A stretch of 64,000 nucleotides of DNA from Pseudanabaena sp. M085S1SP2A07QC (GCA_020404895.1 JADBWK010000004.1:109506-173505); one strand, 5' to 3'. Positions 4,022 to 54,108 are shown, numbered from the stretch's first letter. Numbers and translations: made by a program. Notes: generated by a model from the letters alone, not told the origin.

Positions 4022-4097
4022 ATTTGAAATATTTTGAGGGCAAAGCACTCACTGGAATTACCATATAACTATTATGGGATTCTTGATGATTATGTAG

Positions 4098-4379
4098 GTG
4101 ATGGATATGGCAGTTAAATTCATTCTTAGTGATTATGTCGAGGAAGCTCTAAAACAAGCAACCTATGACAAGTTAGACGATAACTCGTTTGTTGGACGCA
4201 TTCCAAGTTGTCAAGGGGTAATAGCATTTGGAGAAACACTTCGCGAATGTGAATATGAGGTGCAGTCGGTCTTTGAAGACTGGGTTCTTTTAGGATTAAG
4301 GCTAGGACATCACCTGCCAATCATTGGCGGGATCGATCTAAATCAGGAGCTAAAAAGTGAGTCGATTAGCGCCATGTAA
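4098..4379 (+). CDS. hicB: HicB-family antitoxin-like protein (UPF0150 fold)
   Basis: About 90 aa with the pattern FVGRIPSCQGVIAFGETLRECEYEV..EDW, typical of short HicB antitoxins. The start could be ATG 4101 or 4107. It overlaps the next ORF. Confidence 0.65.
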   Translation: MMDMAVKFILSDYVEEALKQATYDKLDDNSFVGRIPSCQGVIAFGETLRECEYEVQSVFEDWVLLGLRLGHHLPIIGGIDLNQELKSESISAM

Positions 4380-4590
4380 ACGTAAAGAGTTCATCCGAAA
4401 GCTCCAAAAACTTAAATTTGAAGGCGTGTTTTCTGGAACAAGGCATCAATTTATGATTTATAAACAATGTCGGCTTACAATTCCTTCAAACCTAGAATAT
4501 TCTGTTCCACAGCTAAAAATGATGATACGAGAAATCGAAAATATTTTAGGTCGAGAAATCACTATTGATGAGTGGAATGACTTGATTTAA
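4357..4590 (+). CDS. hicA: HicA/YcfA-family mRNA-interferase toxin-like protein
   Basis: 77 aa. KRKEFIRKLQKLKFEGVFSGTRHQFM..TIP matches the HicA layout, including the conserved His. GTG start overlaps the hicB end by 23 nt. Confidence 0.6.
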   Translation: MSRLAPCKRKEFIRKLQKLKFEGVFSGTRHQFMIYKQCRLTIPSNLEYSVPQLKMMIREIENILGREITIDEWNDLI

Positions 4591-4655
4591 GCTGTTCTGA
4601 AGTATAGATTTTGAACGAAAAGTACTACAATTAAAAGATAACTGTTAAGAAAAAA

Positions 4656-5438
4656 ATGATTGTTGAAAATAGTGAAGTAATTTTATCGGTCAAAGATTTG
4701 ACTGCGGAAGTTGGTGGAGTCGAGATTTTAAAAGGGCTAAATCTGGAGATTAAAGCTGGTGAAGTCCACGCGATTATGGGACCAAATGGCTCTGGTAAAA
4801 GCACATTCTCGAAAGTGTTAGCGGGACATCCTGCCTATACGGTCACAGGTGGTGAGATTATTTATAAGGGCGAAAACTTATTAGATTTAGCACCAGAAAT
4901 TAGATCTAGAGAAGGTATATTTTTAGCTTTTCAATATCCATTAGAAATTCCTGGGGTGACTAATTCTGATTTCTTGCGATTGTCCTATAACAACTTGAGA
5001 AAGCATAAAGGTTTAGAAGAGTTCGATATCATCGATTTTGATGACTTTATCCAAGAAAAGCTAGAAATCGTAGAAATGAATCCTAGTTTCTTGAGTCGCA
5101 GCGTTAATGAAGGTTTCTCGGGTGGTGAGAAGAAACGCAATGAGATTTTGCAAATGGCAATTCTCGATCCGACTTTGGCAATTCTAGACGAGACAGATTC
5201 GGGGTTAGATATTGATGCTTTGAGGATCGTGGCAGGTGGAGTGAATAAGCTCTCAACCCCTCTCAATTCTTCATTAGTGATTACTCACTATCAGCGCTTA
5301 CTGAATTACATTATTCCAGACTTCATTCATGTGATGGAAAATGGCAAAATTATTCTCACAGGTGGCAAAGACTTGGCTCTGGAACTAGAAGAAAAGGGCT
5401 ATGACTGGCTCAAAGAAGAAGAGGCGGTGTTGGCATAA
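4656..5438 (+). CDS. sufC: Fe-S cluster assembly ATPase SufC
   Basis: Walker [10 protein letters not shown], signature FSGGEKKR, Walker [11 protein letters not shown]. The stop overlaps the sufD ATG. Confidence 0.97.
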
Positions 5439-6823
5439 TGGCTATTCAAGTTTCTGAACAAGTGGAAAATCAAGCAGAACTAAAGGGCGCATTAAGCACT
5501 CGCAGTAAATTGGCTGTTGACAGCAAAAAATTTACTTCCCAAGTGATCAGTTTGGGTTCTGCGATCGCGATCGCTCAAGACACCGATCAGTTTGTGAGCG
5601 AGATTCGTCAATTGGCTAGCGATCGCCTAGCGAGTCTTTCTTTCCCAACCACCAAAGATGAAGAATGGAAATATACTGATGTTTCGTCTTTGGGAAATCT
5701 AACTTTTGCTAATCAACTGGCTAAGTCAGAGGATGTCGAAGCATTAATTGCTAAACATTCGGCTTCTGAAGCATCAGGTAACCTTATTGTGTTTGTGAAT
5801 GGCCAGTATAGCCAGAAGTTCTCAGATACAACGGGTGCAGTACAAGGTTTAGTTATTGGCACATTGGCAACTCTTGGCGATCGCATTCTACCCAAGCTGC
5901 GATCGCACCTCGCTCAGCATCCCGATGCGAATGATTATTTTACGAGTCTGAATACAGCTTGTATGAAAGATGTGGCGATCGTGCTTGCCCCAAAAAATCT
6001 TGTCGTCGAAAACCCAATCCAGCTTTTGTTTGTATCTGCACCACAGGCTGGCGCAACATTGATAACTCAGCCGCGCTGTTTGGTGATTGCAGAAAGCCAT
6101 AGTAATTTGACTTTTATTCAAACTTTTGTGGGAATTGATTCTCAAACCTATTTTACTAATACGGTAACAGAAGTTTGGCTTGCCGAAGGTGCAGAGGTTA
6201 ATCATACTAAGGTGCAGTGGCAAGGTGATGAGGCAGTGCATATCAATACGACTGCGATCGCTCAAGCTCGAAATAGTGTCTATAAAAATCAATCTATTAG
6301 CATCGGTGCGAAGATCTCTCGCCAGAATTTGATCGTGCATCAAATGGCTGAACAAACGCAAACTTCGCTGACTGGGTTAGCATTTGTCGATGGTGAACAG
6401 CACGCGGATACACATTCTGTAATCGCCCACAACTATCCGTACGGATCGAGTAAGCAATTGCACAAGTGCATAGCTGACGGTCGTTCCCATACAGTTTTTA
6501 ATGGCAAAATCCAAGTTGCGAAGTTAGCTCAACAGACTGATTCCGCCCAGCTAAGCCGCAATCTCTTGTTGTCTCCCAAAGCGCGAGTGGACACTAAACC
6601 CCAATTAGAGATTTTTGCAGATAATGTCAAATGCGCTCACGGCGCGACTGTCAGTCAACTAGATGCTGAGGAAATCTTCTATCTCCAAAGTCGGGCGATT
6701 GATGATGAGAGTGCTGCTAACTTGCTAACCTATGCTTTTGCAACCGAGGCGATCAACCAAATTCCGATTGTTTCGGTACAGCGATCGCTTAGTAATTTTG
6801 TGCTTGAAAAAACGAAGGGTTAA
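5438..6823 (+). CDS. sufD: Fe-S cluster assembly protein SufD
   Basis: 461 aa. C-terminal beta-helix region is homologous to SufB (KCAHGATVSQLDAEEIFYLQSR). ATGA coupling to sufC. Confidence 0.93.
   Translation: MAIQVSEQVENQAELKGALSTRSKLAVDSKKFTSQVISLGSAIAIAQDTDQFVSEIRQLASDRLASLSFPTTKDEEWKYTDVSSLGNLTFANQLAKSEDVEALIAKHSASEASGNLIVFVNGQYSQKFSDTTGAVQGLVIGTLATLGDRILPKLRSHLAQHPDANDYFTSLNTACMKDVAIVLAPKNLVVENPIQLLFVSAPQAGATLITQPRCLVIAESHSNLTFIQTFVGIDSQTYFTNTVTEVWLAEGAEVNHTKVQWQGDEAVHINTTAIAQARNSVYKNQSISIGAKISRQNLIVHQMAEQTQTSLTGLAFVDGEQHADTHSVIAHNYPYGSSKQLHKCIADGRSHTVFNGKIQVAKLAQQTDSAQLSRNLLLSPKARVDTKPQLEIFADNVKCAHGATVSQLDAEEIFYLQSRAIDDESAANLLTYAFATEAINQIPIVSVQRSLSNFVLEKTKG
6774..6823 (+). repeat. Left copy of a ~50-nt direct repeat (the functional sufD 3' end)
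   Basis: It re-occurs at 8984-9033 with about 8 substitutions by hand alignment. Confidence 0.85.
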
Positions 6824-6852
6824 TGACTTATAAGTAGGAAAGCTTAATTAAA

Positions 6853-6929
6853 TGTAGGATGTGTTAGTGCAACGTAACGCATCAATTAGTTGTCAATGAT
6901 GGGTTAGCGATAGCGTAACCCATCCTACG
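6853..6929. repeat. Double-hairpin palindromic element of the GTAGG(A/G)TG..CA(T/C)CCTAC family
   Basis: tgtaggatgtgttagtgcaacgtaacgcatc ... gatgggttagcgatagcgtaacccatcctac. Related copies lie at 19044-19128 and 63954-63983. Confidence 0.8.
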
Positions 6930-6963
6930 TTTAATTCCAACAACTTACTTATTGAGTATTTCA

Positions 6964-8262
6964 ATGCTAAAGAGTTTGCGTTTAGAAAATTTTAAAAGTT
7001 TTAAAAATGCCGAGCTTTCGCTTGGAGATTTGACAGTTTTAGTCGGGACAAATGCTTCAGGCAAGAGTAATATTCGCGATGCATTTCGTTTTTTGCATGG
7101 TATTTCGCGAGGTTATAGTATTGCTGAAATTATTGGCGAGAAATATGGGGAAGGTGGTGTACTGCAATGGCGAGGCATACGTGGTGGGACAAAGGAAATA
7201 ACTTATTGTGGGGCTGATTCTTTTGCGATCGCTATTTCTTTTTCCGTCCAAGATGGTGATACAGAATATGAGATGGATTACCGCATTGAGATAAGGCTTA
7301 CCGCTTTTAGTCCAGTACCGATTGTTGTTGCAGAGAACCTCCATTGTAGACAGAAAAAACACGCAATTTTTGACACAGTCGCTAGAGTTCATTTACAAAA
7401 TACTATTGCTGTTCGTTTTTATGATTATTACGAAATTGATGAAGTTAATGGAAGTGCTCTTGATCCATATCAATTTTTCCAAAACTATATTCCCATTCTT
7501 TTTTTAGCAGCGAGTGGAGTTAAACCCCATATTCAGAAGCTTGACAAAGAAAATTACAAAATACCAGTTGCAAGAAAATTTTGTGAACTAGCTTTAAATG
7601 CCATAAGTGACATGAGGTTCTTAGAGCTTAGTCCAGATTTGATGAGACTTCCAACTTTCTCAGGACAAAATATTTTAGGCGATCGCGGGGAAAATTTGTC
7701 ATCGGTGATGTTAGATATCTGTCGTGATGAAACTCGTAAGGCGATTTTATTGGATTGGTTGCAATCTTTAACGCCAATGGATGCAAAAGATTTTGATTTT
7801 CCCGAAGACTTCACTGGCAAAGTTCTACTTAGAATCGAAGAAGCAAGTGGTCAGAAAACAACCGCTTATAGTGCATCGGATGGAACATTACGATTTTTAG
7901 GATTGTTGGCAGCACTTTTGGGTAATCAGCGATCGCGCTTTTACTTTTTTGAAGAACCTGAAAATGGCATTCATCCTAATCGGTTAAGCTTGCTGTTGCA
8001 GCTTATGCAGCAAGAAGTCGCCAATAGCTCGATGCAAATTGTGATTACTACTCACTCACCGCTTTTGTTGAATTTCTTAAGCCCCGAAAGCCTCGAATAT
8101 GCTTCTTTAATGTATCGAATCGGCGATCGCAGCGAGTCACGCATAACCAAAATTATGGACATTCCCAACGCTAGGGAACTTGTTGTCAATGAAGGCTTAT
8201 CGAGCTTACTAGATTCAGGATGGCTAGAAGATGCGATGTATAGCAATGTAAGCTTTGCTTAG
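6964..8262 (+). CDS. AAA_15/AAA_21-type ABC (SMC/RecF-like) ATPase, OLD/PARIS-AriA/AbiL-like; its C-terminus has been remodelled by a MITE
   Basis: N-terminus MLKSLRLENFKSFK. Walker A GTNASGKS, signature-like SDGTLRFLGLL, Walker B FYFFEEPENGIHP, H-loop ITTHSP. The track start is TTG at 6952, and ATG at 6964 is the more likely start. The last 7 codons and the stop lie inside the MITE at 8239-8346. Confidence 0.85.
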   Translation: MLKSLRLENFKSFKNAELSLGDLTVLVGTNASGKSNIRDAFRFLHGISRGYSIAEIIGEKYGEGGVLQWRGIRGGTKEITYCGADSFAIAISFSVQDGDTEYEMDYRIEIRLTAFSPVPIVVAENLHCRQKKHAIFDTVARVHLQNTIAVRFYDYYEIDEVNGSALDPYQFFQNYIPILFLAASGVKPHIQKLDKENYKIPVARKFCELALNAISDMRFLELSPDLMRLPTFSGQNILGDRGENLSSVMLDICRDETRKAILLDWLQSLTPMDAKDFDFPEDFTGKVLLRIEEASGQKTTAYSASDGTLRFLGLLAALLGNQRSRFYFFEEPENGIHPNRLSLLLQLMQQEVANSSMQIVITTHSPLLLNFLSPESLEYASLMYRIGDRSESRITKIMDIPNARELVVNEGLSSLLDSGWLEDAMYSNVSFA

Positions 8263-8346
8263 GACATAAAACCCAAAAGATGGCAGAGCGAAGCTCTGCC
8301 ATCTTTTGGGTTTTGAATTGTCCTATCTATCTCTTACGTTGCTATA
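8239..8346. mobile_element. 108-bp MITE, copy 1 (TIR TATAGCAATGTAAG / CTTACGTTGCTATA, internal 20-bp-stem hairpin)
   Basis: Near-identical copies at 49742-49849 and 54001-54108. The outer TA dinucleotides are compatible with a TA target duplication. Confidence 0.9.
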
Positions 8347-8376
8347 TTTCCTCGAAGATGAAGAGGTGCAGAACGC

Positions 8377-8979
8377 ATGAATGTTCTGATTATTCTTGAG
8401 GATTTTGTCAATGATGAGAGTATGGTGCTACCGATTGTCAGAGCGATGATGACAGCGATCGGTAAGCCAAAAGCAAAAATTACTGTCTGCAAAAATCCAC
8501 GCCTCCGAGGTCATGCTGAAGCCCTGAGATGGGAAAAGATTCAAGAAATTTTGCAAAGATATGGTGGTATGACCGACTTGTTTTTGGTCTGTGTTGATCG
8601 CGATGGCAATGAAGATAGACGGGCAAAACTTGATGGACTTGAAAAACGAGCGCAAGAATTTTTAGCAGAGAAATATCAAAAGCCCAAAAAGTTTATAGGC
8701 GAAAATGCTTGGCAAGAATTGGAAGTATGGGTTTTAGCAGGATGCACCGATCTTCCAAAAAACTGGAATTGGGCAGAAATTCGTGCTGAGAGAAAATCTA
8801 AAAAAGGATATTTCATGCAATTTGCGGAACTGCGATCGCTATTAGAAGCACGTTGTCAAGGCAGAGGAATCCTCGCAGAAGAAGCGGCTAATCGTTACGA
8901 TCGCATTCGTAAACGATGCCCTGAAGATATTGGGAACTTAGAAACAAATATTCAAGAATGGCTAGTTAGGAATGATTAG
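8377..8979 (+). CDS. Toprim-like small protein (DUF4276-like, by recollection), partner of the upstream ABC ATPase
   Basis: 200 aa. Ordered acidic motifs are LIILED (N-terminus), LVCVDRDGNED (DxD) and QELEVWVLAG. The ancestral ATGA overlap with the ATPase gene can be reconstructed. Confidence 0.6.
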   Translation: MNVLIILEDFVNDESMVLPIVRAMMTAIGKPKAKITVCKNPRLRGHAEALRWEKIQEILQRYGGMTDLFLVCVDRDGNEDRRAKLDGLEKRAQEFLAEKYQKPKKFIGENAWQELEVWVLAGCTDLPKNWNWAEIRAERKSKKGYFMQFAELRSLLEARCQGRGILAEEAANRYDRIRKRCPEDIGNLETNIQEWLVRND

Positions 8980-8983
8980 TGTT

Positions 8984-9033
8984 CAGTACAGCGATCGCTT
9001 AGTAATTTTGTATTTGAGAAAACAAAAGCATAA
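8984..9033 (+). repeat. Right copy of the direct repeat: a displaced, diverged sufD 3' end (would encode VQRSLSNFVFEKTKA*)
   Basis: It aligns codon-for-codon with 6774-6823 (VQRSLSNFVLEKTKG*). A hairpin terminator follows immediately. Confidence 0.85.
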
Positions 9034-9038
9034 ACCCT

Positions 9039-9081
9039 AAAAAATAAGAGACGACGCAATTGCCTCGCCTCTTATTTTTTT
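9039..9081 (+). terminator. Hairpin plus T-run, probably the ancestral sufD/suf operon terminator
   Basis: aaaaaataagagacg..cgcctcttattttttt, directly after the displaced sufD 3' end. Confidence 0.6.
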
Positions 9082-9158
9082 CCTCTATACTTCGCTAAAA
9101 ATGCTATAAGTCATCCTGTGAAAAATGCTAGGATGCTGAACATCAAGAATGTATCGGG

Positions 9159-11327
9159 ATGAGAAAATTAATGCGTTGGTCTATCGTGCTTATGCTCAGT
9201 GCTACATTAGCAGGAGCGAGCGCCCCACTAATTACCGCTTCTTCTGACTCAGATATTACTCTGAATGCAAGCTTAGGAAATAATCGAGACGGCAAATCAT
9301 TTGATCCGCTTACATACTCTCCCGTTGATCAAAGACTTGCTAAATTAGAAACTCAGGCTAAACAGCAAAGTTCTAATACTACCGATACTGACCGTGTTCG
9401 CGCTCGTTTGGTAATTGCGGATATTCATCTCAACAACCGCAAGCCTCGCGAAGCGATCGCTGCTCTTGATAAATTGGAAACTGAGTATCCAGTTTTAGCC
9501 GATTATGTTTTGCTCAAACGCGCACAGGCTCAAACCCAACTGCGCGATCTCCAAGCAGCAAAAGCAACTTGGGAGCAACTTTTAGCTAAGTTCCCTGATA
9601 GTCCTGCATCTGCTGAAGCGATGTTTGCTTTAGGACAAAATCAACAGCTTTTACAAAAATTTCCTGCTCATCCGCGATCGCAAGAAGTTGCCCTACGCTT
9701 ACTAGCCCAAACTCCAAATCGAGTTGATCTAATGGCGCATCTGGCGACTTACTTTAGTGATTCCAAAGAGATTGTCCCGATTTTAAATCGTCTAGTTGCT
9801 AGTTCACCATCACTCACCTCTGATCAATGGTGGGCGATTGCCGATGGATATTACAATAAGTTTGAATTTGGTCGAGCTGCTAATGCTTACGCCCGTGCGA
9901 CTGTAAATCCTATAACTGCCTACAATTACGCCCGTAGCCTGCATCGGGGCAAACAATTCGACAATGCGATCACCGCTTATAACCGAGTTGTCCAGCAATT
10001 TCCGCAAAGTCCTCAAGCTCCTCGTGCTCTCATTCGGATTACGCAGATAGGTTCGCCTGAAGCTGCGATCTCGGTAACTGATCGCATTGTGACAAGCTAT
10101 CCCGATACCGCAGCCGAAGCCTTAGCAATTAAGGCTTCGATTTTGCAAGATAAACTTGATAGCCCTAAATCCGCAAGTGACGTTCGTAATCTATTGTTAA
10201 GTCGCTATGGCAGTAGCGATGATGCTGGTGAATTACGTTGGCGAATTGCTAAAGGACAAGGGCGATCTGGACAGGTCAAGAATGCGATCGCCACGGTTGA
10301 CGCATTGATTGCCAATAGTCCAGATAGTACATCCGCAGCCGAAGCGAGCTTCTGGGCAGGTAAATGGGCTAATCAAATTGGCGATAAAGCTAAAGCTAAA
10401 AAGTTTTTTGAGTTTGCGATTCGTCAACATCCCGATTCCTATTTTGCGTGGAGATCGGCGAGTTCTCTTGGATGGAATGTGGGAACCTTCACGACAGCAC
10501 GCTACGTTGCACCAGCGATCGCATTACCTAGTGCAAGAGTAGCTTTGCCAGCGGGTTCGGCGAAACTACAAGAGTTGTATATCCTCGGTCTAGATCGTGA
10601 TGCACAATCGCAATGGATGTCAGAATTGCGCGGTAAGCGAAAACTGGAACCCAAGGAAATTTTTACTGACGGTGTTTTGCGTGTTGCGAATCTAGATAAC
10701 TTGATTGGAATTAAAACGCTGGAAAGCTTAAATTGGATTGATGTTCCTAATTCGCAAAGAGCCGAAATCGCCCAACTCAAGCAGCATCCTGCATACATAC
10801 ACTCACTCTATCCGTTTCATTACTGGGATATCATTTCCAACTGGTCACGCGATCGTAAACTCTCTCCAGCTCTCGTCATTGGTTTGATGCGTCAAGAATC
10901 CCGATTTGAGGCTCAAATTCGTTCTCGTTCAGGTGCGATCGGTTTGATGCAAATCATGCCAGATACAGGCTCATGGATTGCTAGTAAAAAGGGCGTGAAT
11001 AGCTATAATCTCGACAGACCTGAAGATAATATCAATTTTGGGACTTGGTATCTGGACTATACCCACAGCCGTTTTGGAGATAACACCATGCTTGCCATTG
11101 CTAGCTATAATGCAGGACCTGGTGCGATCGGTAGATGGGTAGAATCGAGAGGTTTGGGAGATCCTGATGAGTTTGTGAATAATATTCCCTACGATGAAAC
11201 TAGAGATTATGTGTCCAAAGTTTTAGGTAACTATTGGAACTACCTGCGGTTGTATTCTCCTTCAGTACAACAACAGATAACAGCTTTGGAACAGCCTAAT
11301 AATATCAATGCCTCAACTAAGTTCTAA
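9159..11327 (+). CDS. Soluble lytic murein transglycosylase (Slt70-like: signal peptide, TPR/superhelical region, C-terminal SLT domain)
   Basis: SLT motifs LMRQESRFE, GLMQIMPDTG, ASYNAGPG. N-terminal signal sequence. Confidence 0.9.
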   Translation: MRKLMRWSIVLMLSATLAGASAPLITASSDSDITLNASLGNNRDGKSFDPLTYSPVDQRLAKLETQAKQQSSNTTDTDRVRARLVIADIHLNNRKPREAIAALDKLETEYPVLADYVLLKRAQAQTQLRDLQAAKATWEQLLAKFPDSPASAEAMFALGQNQQLLQKFPAHPRSQEVALRLLAQTPNRVDLMAHLATYFSDSKEIVPILNRLVASSPSLTSDQWWAIADGYYNKFEFGRAANAYARATVNPITAYNYARSLHRGKQFDNAITAYNRVVQQFPQSPQAPRALIRITQIGSPEAAISVTDRIVTSYPDTAAEALAIKASILQDKLDSPKSASDVRNLLLSRYGSSDDAGELRWRIAKGQGRSGQVKNAIATVDALIANSPDSTSAAEASFWAGKWANQIGDKAKAKKFFEFAIRQHPDSYFAWRSASSLGWNVGTFTTARYVAPAIALPSARVALPAGSAKLQELYILGLDRDAQSQWMSELRGKRKLEPKEIFTDGVLRVANLDNLIGIKTLESLNWIDVPNSQRAEIAQLKQHPAYIHSLYPFHYWDIISNWSRDRKLSPALVIGLMRQESRFEAQIRSRSGAIGLMQIMPDTGSWIASKKGVNSYNLDRPEDNINFGTWYLDYTHSRFGDNTMLAIASYNAGPGAIGRWVESRGLGDPDEFVNNIPYDETRDYVSKVLGNYWNYLRLYSPSVQQQITALEQPNNINASTKF

Positions 11328-49741: not shown

Positions 49742-49849
49742 TATAGCAATGTAAGCTTTGCTTAGGACATAAAACCCAAAAGATGGCAGAGCGAAGCTCT
49801 GCCATCTTTTGGGTTTTGAATTGTCCTATCTATCTCTTACGTTGCTATA
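49742..49849. mobile_element. 108-bp MITE, copy 2
   Basis: By eye identical to copy 1 (8239-8346). It lies 93 nt upstream of the Rieske gene start. Confidence 0.9.
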
Positions 49850-54000: not shown

Positions 54001-54108
54001 TATAGCAATGTAAGCTTTGCTTAGGACATAAAACCCAAAAGATGGCAGAGCTTCGCTCTGCCATCTTTTGTGTTTTGAATTGTCCTATCTATCTCTTACG
54101 TTGCTATA
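54001..54108. mobile_element. 108-bp MITE, copy 3 (central loop inverted: gagcTTCgctc versus gagcGAAgctc)
   Basis: Same TIRs as copies 1 and 2, plus one g-to-t change in the right stem arm. It sits exactly where a HATPase_c domain should be encoded. Confidence 0.9.

Follow-up and report, generated by a model that had tools for sequence, protein, structure and literature searches.

A two-gene cassette lacking a recognizable recombinase lies within the 3' end of sufD in Pseudanabaena and appears to have brought a replacement gene end

The concept of minimal mobile elements comes from Neisseria, and later surveys added defence hotspots flanked by core genes, which are exchanged by homologous recombination after transformation. 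Cis-mobilizable elements (CIMEs) and integrative mobile elements exploiting Xer (IMEX) are flanked by attachment (att) sites, have no integrase of their own, and use a recombinase supplied in trans. HIP1 is the most abundant cyanobacterial repeat. In Synechococcus PCC 7002, HIP1 sites in homology arms raise integration in natural transformation, for which the authors suggested a Chi-like role, and HIP1 is not part of the native restriction system (bioRxiv 10.1101/2024.09.10.611283). At Rhs, contact-dependent inhibition (CDI) and Vibrio type VI secretion system (T6SS) loci, C-terminal displacement with orphan arrays has been attributed to homology-facilitated illegitimate recombination (PMC5361080). 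Two-gene defence systems of the OLD family and PARIS-like type combine an ABC ATPase of the AAA_15/AAA_21 families with a Toprim nuclease, and include DUF4276 partners such as Mad4 (PMC11464382, PMC12065111). Here we describe a cassette of two genes, coding for an ABC-type ATPase and a 200-aa protein (P200), inserted within the 3' end of sufD in a stretch of 64,000 nt from Pseudanabaena sp. M085S1SP2A07QC (GCA_020404895.1, JADBWK010000004.1:109506-173505), hereafter the window.

A first-pass annotation of this sequence had described an in-frame duplication of the sufD end, 16 codons and a stop in length. Duplication in the same register was confirmed, while the repeated coding part proved to be 15 codons plus stop, at 6776-6823 (VQRSLSNFVLEKTKG and stop) and 8986-9033 (VQRSLSNFVFEKTKA and stop), with similarity beginning 4 nt before the in-frame part, at 6772 and 8982. 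A repeat search aligned 6772-6839 with 8982-9049 (68 nt, 78% identity), and in the 50-nt stretch originally compared, for which about 42 identical positions had been estimated, 42 were counted. Differences between the copies are confined to the last 21 nt, and six of the seven coding differences are synonymous or conservative. Both copies share the 26-mer GTACAGCGATCGCTTAGTAATTTTGT without a mismatch, and a search that tolerated up to 3 mismatches found it nowhere else in the 64-kb window (0 expected in shuffled sequences); it is therefore not a dispersed repeat. The possibility that the 50-mer is dispersed genome-wide, considered in the first-pass annotation, was likewise dismissed, as only the two copies occur in the window even with 3 mismatches, although one HIP1 site (GCGATCGC) lies inside.

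The second copy is followed by a hairpin with a T-run, formed by 25-nt arms of 92% complementarity (RNA folding energy -16.8 kcal/mol, z = -7.9). A terminator scan missed it because of two stem mismatches, and the hairpin was shown by folding. Its assignment as the original suf operon terminator holds, given that it folds strongly and that the same hairpin follows the intact sufD of the relative L001 (compared loci are referred to by L numbers). The hairpin in the window is the exact reverse complement of that in L001. Rfam and tRNA scans of the window gave no match, ruling out a tRNA or non-coding RNA gene as att site.

Scanning species-representative genomes for SufD yielded 43 Pseudanabaenaceae loci. 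In 12 of these relatives the site is empty, and sufD is followed by the terminator and then by the SLT gene that is the right-hand neighbour in the window, 114-253 nt after sufD, in agreement with the proposal that everything between the two copies is inserted. The closest empty-site relative is Pseudanabaena sp. UWO311 (L001). Its intact sufD ends in ...GTATTTGAAAAAACAAAAGCC-TGA and continues with the terminator and promoter-proximal sequence as found in the window at 9034-9160. Because the sufD end of L001 is that of copy 2, copy 2 is the original end, displaced as had been suspected; its sequence is the same in the conspecific loci L085 and L086. The sufD gene in the window is a hybrid, with a host part extending to about 6802 and a cassette-type tail at 6803-6823. 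This tail (...ACG AAG GGT TAA) occurs elsewhere only in other occupied loci and in the L010/L015/L019/L030 lineage. The near end was thus regenerated by the incoming element, as the first-pass annotation held, and the present terminus GTGCTTGAAAAAACGAAGGGT-TAA arrived with the insert in its last ~21 nt. The inserted length is about 2.16 kb, comprising in order the foreign sufD tail, a miniature inverted-repeat transposable element (MITE-A), the ATPase gene, a second such element (MITE-B), and the P200 gene (Table 1).

Table 1. Coordinates of features at the sufD locus, counted from the first letter of the window
Feature	Position	Strand	Evidence
sufD, hybrid gene	5438..6823	+	Pfam SUFBD_core 1e-79; NCBIfam sufD 4e-81
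Repeat copy 1, functional sufD 3' end	6772..6823	+	exact 26-nt core 6776-6801, HIP1 at 6781-6788
MITE-A, palindromic dispersed element filling the gap between sufD stop and ATPase start	6832..6952	+	inverted arms 6846-6866 / 6916-6936
ABC-type ATPase (AAA_15/AAA_21)	6964..8262	+	Pfam AAA_21 4e-33, AAA_15 5e-23
ATPase variable segment	7238..7622	+	two alleles, 54-70% nt identity (sliding identity)
MITE-B, secondary insertion between ATPase and P200	8239..8346	.	core hairpin 8268-8314
P200, 200-aa DUF4276-like protein with predicted Toprim signature	8377..8979	+	family comparison, AF2 model
Repeat copy 2, displaced non-functional original sufD 3' end (remnant)	8982..9033	+	matches intact sufD end of L001
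Original suf operon terminator, hairpin and T-run	9039..9080	+	inverted-repeat search, RNA folding
TPR/SLT lytic transglycosylase gene, right-hand neighbour at empty and occupied sites	9159..11327	+	Pfam SLT 6e-30, synteny

The absence of sufS after sufD, pointed out earlier as unusual, was also observed here; it is uninformative, as the empty sites of this clade likewise run from sufD through the terminator to the SLT gene without sufS directly 3' of sufD, and the insertion therefore did not displace it. No GHHC-type SufS motif was found in the window, and there was none among the 20 open reading frames (ORFs) scanned, the remaining large ORFs lying outside that scan.

The cassette occupies the identical site in L004, L014, L030 and L034, on the metagenomic contigs L085 and L086, and in L087, L100, L101 and L104, which amounts to five or more lineages besides that of the window. 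L085 and L086 belong to the species of the window (SLT 99.7-100% aa identity). At all occupied loci, functional sufD ends in the shared foreign tail ...ACG AAG GNN TAA. The remnant and terminator are of the local clade type: the window and L004 have that of L001, L034 that of L002, and L014 that of L011/L017/L022. It follows that the cassette arrived at this site in three or more lineages, after these had diverged. In addition, L018 (8680-9540) and L067 (8336-8980) contain 650-870 nt of MITE-rich non-coding sequence between sufD and SLT with no sufD-tail duplicate, and L095 (1340-1470) holds a decayed cassette, reduced to the last ~25 nt of the ATPase gene and the first 30 P200 codons.

Divergence of the cassette differs from that of its flanks. 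The window and L014, members of different clades, have 89-99% nt identity in the cassette, compared with ~77% in sufD and ~82% in SLT. Synonymous divergence (dS, Nei-Gojobori) of P200 is 0.19-0.24 in all six pairs of occupied loci, while the flanks of the window and L014 reach 0.69 in sufC, 0.95 in SLT and 1.45 in sufD (0.40-0.53 within clades). Furthermore, cassette alleles are shuffled among occupied loci. P200 dS far below that of the flanks means that the cassette moved horizontally, in line with the mobility proposed in the first-pass annotation; the same values, ~0.2 vs 0.7-1.45 between clades, are at odds with vertical inheritance of the ATPase/Toprim pair as core genes.

Junctions are not identical from locus to locus. 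The switch from host to incoming sequence in copy 1 lies at about -21/-24 in the window and L014, at about -39 in L004, and farther upstream in L034; later gene conversion could have shifted these points. On the right, junctions read stop codon, AGT and remnant, and remnants are 78, 52 or ~45 nt long. The remnant starts at the upstream HIP1 (HIP1#1, -76) in L014, L087, L100, L104 and L015, and at HIP1#2 (-48) in L034. In the window, as in L004, L085 and L086, its start precedes HIP1#2 by 8 nt; sufD in the clade of the window has no upstream HIP1 (GCGATCAAC). Breakpoints cluster at two HIP1 palindromes, of which that at -76 is extended to a 10-bp perfect palindrome, GGCGATCGCC. Rearrangements show similar ends. 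L030 carries a 103-nt tandem duplication of the junction between the sufD tail and MITE-A, starting at AGCGATCGC, the deletion in L095 fuses P200 to the sufD remnant via the shared 10-mer ACAGCGATCG, and truncations in L087 and L100 lie directly after a HIP1 site. Joints are located at HIP1 sites (8-10 nt), and the common AGT suggests that some were inherited and did not form independently. No further sufD-tail duplicates were found in related loci; weak additional "remnants" in L016 and L035 lie within other genes and were rejected as chance HIP1 matches.

None of the searches disclosed a recombinase. Pfam, NCBIfam, PADLOC and PHROGs linked neither inserted gene to a recombinase family, and 20 other ORFs of the window likewise yielded no recombinase, so that the lack of an integrase noted in the first-pass annotation is upheld. 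No integrase-bearing element was detected at the sufD site in the 43 Pseudanabaenaceae loci.

The site also hosts different cargo. At L015 (11429-14350), an unrelated insert of 2.9 kb is located at the sufD tail site, comprising four minus-strand ORFs without family matches. It encodes a P-loop NTPase and three further proteins, with no recombinase. The largest ORF (413 aa) was rejected as a hidden integrase because of its Walker A (GGIGSGKTT) and Walker B-like motifs, and also because it has no recombinase match in Pfam, PADLOC, PHROGs or PDB. Judging from these motifs, the insert may be another defence module. It is bounded on one side by a cassette-type tail and on the other by a decayed remnant (score 43-49, null maximum 32), which begins with AGTCAG-GCGATCGC as in L100 and L104 and is closer to the ordinary ancestral tail than to L015's own. 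The ancestral-like remnant indicates that the foreign tail was element-borne there too and that the site accepts more than one cargo.

The ATPase-P200 pair (P200 72-87% aa identity) also resides elsewhere in the chromosome, at a second locus downstream of a gene for polyprenyl synthase, in L080 (8691-10603; Pseudanabaena minima, CP159508), L081-L084, L089 and L096-L099. P. minima, which carries the pair at the second locus, has an empty sufD site (L017). The neighbours of the pair at the second locus vary; among them are Uma2, a PIN toxin-antitoxin pair, HicAB, and an amino oxidase with a start that overlaps the stop of P200. The two sites have only the coding sequence in common; neither conserved ends nor a gene-end duplication was found at the second locus.

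Taking these observations together, we lean, with slightly better than even confidence, towards an islet that lacks an integrase and travels by natural transformation combined with recombination, either homologous or over short homology. Its own sufD tail would serve as the homology that it carries along. The islet would bring a functional sufD tail on its left and the start of a dead copy of that tail on its right. DNA of an occupied strain would enter another Pseudanabaena by natural transformation, or the islet would loop out between its direct repeats. Recombination would then proceed through the near-invariant, HIP1-containing run of 26-30 nt in the sufD tail, the longest identical stretch between these diverged lineages, by a RecA-type homologous pathway grading into homology-facilitated illegitimate recombination at HIP1 microhomology. 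The stimulation of integration by HIP1 in homology arms in PCC 7002 (bioRxiv 10.1101/2024.09.10.611283) agrees with such a pathway. The incoming tail would complete the recipient sufD, and the recipient's own tail would be pushed downstream, where it would decay.

Several points weigh against this reading. Recombination over only 26-78 nt of homology is inefficient, and every cross-clade transfer has both crossovers at the cassette edges, as would be predicted for a site-specific enzyme. The right junction (stop followed by AGT...) is common to most loci and to the L015 cargo, and could mark a conserved att arm. Homologous recombination alone does not explain the founding event of the duplicated frame. 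The analysis covers 64 kb of this genome, and a trans-acting recombinase could be encoded elsewhere; the sample consists of species-level representatives, which limits the resolution of recombination tracts.

These points lead to the alternative of a recombinase supplied in trans, as for CIME- or IMEX-type elements, with the sufD tail and the AGTCAG-HIP1 arm as attP, a tyrosine or serine recombinase of the host or of a helper element, and the crossover core in the HIP1 run. It would account for an insert bounded by direct repeats with regeneration of the target gene 3' end, for the recurrence of one site in three or more clades with crossovers inside the repeat, for two unrelated cargos in one frame with the common right-end motif AGTCAGGCGATCGC, and for the extension of the HIP1 at -76 into a perfect palindrome. 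It is difficult to reconcile with cargos and neighbouring ORFs in which no recombinase was found, with 43 related loci devoid of an integrase-bearing element at the site and of further sufD-tail duplicates, and with a second-locus gene pair that has no conserved ends or gene-end duplication. Apparent crossover points and remnant starts differ between loci, and such variation in switch points and remnant lengths would not be predicted by a fixed crossover, while short homology fits it at least as well. We consider a trans-acting recombinase unlikely, yet a serious competitor. The first-pass annotation had read the duplicated end as the classic footprint of site-specific integration; this was not demonstrated, and on balance site-specific integration is less likely than homology-driven insertion.

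Cut-and-paste of restriction/ligation type, in which a HIP1-bounded fragment is joined into a HIP1 site of the recipient sufD, would explain the exact coincidence of remnant starts and of several rearrangement ends with GCGATCGC. The remnant in the window and L004, however, begins 8 nt upstream of HIP1#2, HIP1 is outside the native restriction system in PCC 7002 (bioRxiv 10.1101/2024.09.10.611283), and no candidate enzyme is known, which makes this explanation very improbable. Least credible of all is one ancient insertion, inherited vertically and lost many times by recombination between the repeats without any horizontal movement, since the shared stop-AGT junction of most occupied loci, the ability of direct repeats to permit precise loss restoring a native-looking sufD, and the age implied by remnant decay (deletions in L034, L015, L087 and L101) are outweighed by the uniformly low P200 dS (~0.2 in all pairs, against 0.7-1.45 for between-clade flanks), by local-type remnant tails and terminators in each of three clades, and by the fact that dead sequence would not follow the lineage-specific synonymous states of the live gene.

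A bolder reading would see the sufD tail frame as a natural landing pad with swappable cargo, its mobility dependent on HIP1, the islet bringing a portable copy of the target gene end that selection maintains, and HIP1 palindromes acting as Chi-like or uptake-linked joints. We regard this idea as doubtful. If true, it would describe an integrase-free element with site-specific behaviour across species and the first natural genomic footprint of HIP1-stimulated recombination, hitherto seen only with engineered plasmids. The association of HIP1 with breakpoints is in itself interesting and testable, and the locus provides a natural setting in which to test what HIP1 does in recombination and gene transfer.

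With regard to the cargo, the mechanically called ATPase ORF begins at TTG 6952, and ATG 6964 is the probable start. The protein matches the PADLOC model PDC-M07A (3e-70) and AriA models (1e-33 and 4e-26); the latter align to parts of the ATPase only, and PDC-M07A scores far better. The native C-terminus, YFLEDEEVQNA followed by a stop, is present in L004, L014 and L034, and in MITE-B-free copies it overlaps the P200 start by ATGA. The variable segment corresponds to residues ~92-220. One of its alleles is carried by the window and L034, and the other by L004, L014 and L085, so both are present within a single species (L085: SLT 99.7% aa, ATPase 82% aa). The pattern resembles that of a specificity domain which has been swapped. 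In L030 (8440) and L104 (1-135), the Walker A region of the ATPase is interrupted at the same position by an IS-like element whose end reads GGGGTGCGACCTT...

P200 of the window has no direct match in Pfam, PADLOC, NCBIfam or PHROGs. DUF4276 is weakly matched by 3 of 28 members of its family (E<=3e-4), and some sources label family members as "DUF4276 family". In DUF4276, the Toprim signature consists of a conserved Glu following the first strand and a DxD motif following the third (PMC12065111). The AlphaFold2 (AF2) model of P200 (mean predicted local distance difference test score, pLDDT, 91.6) has four beta-alpha units with strands at residues 2-7, 34-37, 68-72 and 105-109; E8 follows strand 1 and D76 follows strand 3, both being invariant in the family, and D74 is present in at least 90% of members. 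The modelled fold would thus include the four-stranded alpha/beta Toprim core with its Glu and DxD. Foldseek against PDB returned nothing below 1e-3, and a PDB profile search gave no match. P200 is the probable nuclease effector.

The P200 family is widespread in cyanobacteria and occurs in few other phyla, and an ATPase of this kind was adjacent at every locus examined. No relatives were found in phage records and only two, distant ones, in plasmids; the pair is not known from phages and is rare on plasmids. One viral-collection contig, UViG_3300036393_000014 of IMG/VR (L110), encodes a distant P200 relative of 53% identity at 6122-6694. GC content and HIP1 density of the cassette resemble those of the host.

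The predicted Toprim signature together with the partner ATPase would place the cargo among OLD/PARIS-like ATPase-Toprim pairs, as a candidate anti-phage defence pair. Three described systems were considered and rejected. In PARIS (AriA/AriB), AriB is a DUF4435 Toprim nuclease of ~35 kDa, while P200 has 200 aa and no PADLOC or Pfam match. In the PADLOC candidate system PDC-M07, the A component matches (3e-70) and the partner has no PADLOC match at E<=0.01. For MADS, Mad3 scored 96.8 bits against an NCBIfam cut-off of 420, and the insert contains no other (methylation) genes. Since the cassette lies before the operon terminator and in operon orientation, its co-transcription with sufBCD is plausible.

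Both repetitive elements in the insert are short, contain no ORF, have terminal inverted repeats and occur in dispersed copies, supporting the earlier recognition of a MITE and a palindromic element; the latter, MITE-A, belongs likewise to a dispersed MITE family. MITE-A (121 nt, approximate borders) is found at the same cassette position in L004, L014, L030 and L034, and other copies were located in L034 (966-1041, minus strand), L035 (13280-13390) and L043 (18339). Its inner loop at 6900-6920 (GGGTTA-GCGATAGCG-TAACCC) is inverted relative to L004, L014 and L034, so that two flipped imperfect palindromes are present at the locus, this loop and the terminator hairpin (vs L001). MITE-B has three copies in the window (8239-8346, 49771-49817 and 54030-54076). 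It took the place of the last 10 native ATPase codons and broke the ATGA overlap with P200, and may impair the system. MITE-B is missing from every other occupied locus, and its absence even in the conspecific L085 and L086 shows it to be a very recent secondary insertion.

The spacer between sufB and sufC (window 4022-4655) forms a second hypervariable islet of Pseudanabaena genomes, its length varying between 67 nt and 4.2 kb. In the window it contains a UPF0150/HicB-like ORF (4098-4376), and spacers of relatives (L001:7851-9219, L026:5042-9228, L036:5098-9219, and others) contain Tox-PL-2, DUF29, DUF6414, a methyltransferase and another AAA_21 ATPase. No gene-end duplication was found in this spacer. 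The two sites suggest that the stress-regulated suf operon of Pseudanabaena gathers toxin-antitoxin and defence genes, at the sufB-sufC spacer and at the sufD tail.

Should homology-driven spread be correct, a defence cassette would act like a site-specific mobile element without a recombinase of its own, and a short functional end of a housekeeping gene would both keep an essential gene intact and give homology in any relative. The cargo, an uncharacterised ATPase with a swappable segment paired with a DUF4276-like putative Toprim protein, is a candidate for phage-defence testing.

Compared with described systems, the locus combines known kinds, a defence islet exchanged by recombination and the displacement of a gene 3' end. 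Elements with their own integrase share with it the direct repeats and the empty sites (12 here), and differ from it by an integrase inside the element. As in CIMEs and IMEX, direct repeats at both ends accompany a regenerated target gene end and no internal recombinase; unlike in those, no cognate integrase element was found (43 loci, 20 window ORFs), the crossover position appears to vary, and the insertion targets sufD instead of a tRNA gene or dif. OLD/PARIS-like systems are resembled in the ATPase, which matches PDC-M07A and AriA, in a small partner with a predicted Toprim E...DxD, and in ATGA coupling of the genes in undamaged copies; the differences are a P200 without direct PADLOC, Pfam, NCBIfam or PHROGs match, a Mad3 score below cut-off, and no methyltransferase or other MADS genes. 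Small cargo without mobility genes, conserved chromosomal flanks (sufD and SLT), presence/absence with alternative cargo at the same site, and spread among relatives are features of minimal mobile elements and defence hotspots; unlike them, the sufD islet lies inside a gene, brings its own replacement 3' end, leaves a duplicated remnant, and has edge homology of only tens of nt. In this respect it is like the displacement at Rhs, CDI and T6SS loci (PMC5361080), where the conserved end of the upstream gene anchors incoming DNA, which provides a new 3' end and displaces the old one as a remnant; correspondingly, the anchor in sufD is one-sided and the remnant starts inside the gene (-76, -52, -45). 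In contrast to those loci, what is displaced here is a 45-78-nt tail of a housekeeping gene, with no toxin tip or immunity gene, the protein is essentially unchanged, and the cargo consists of separate genes.

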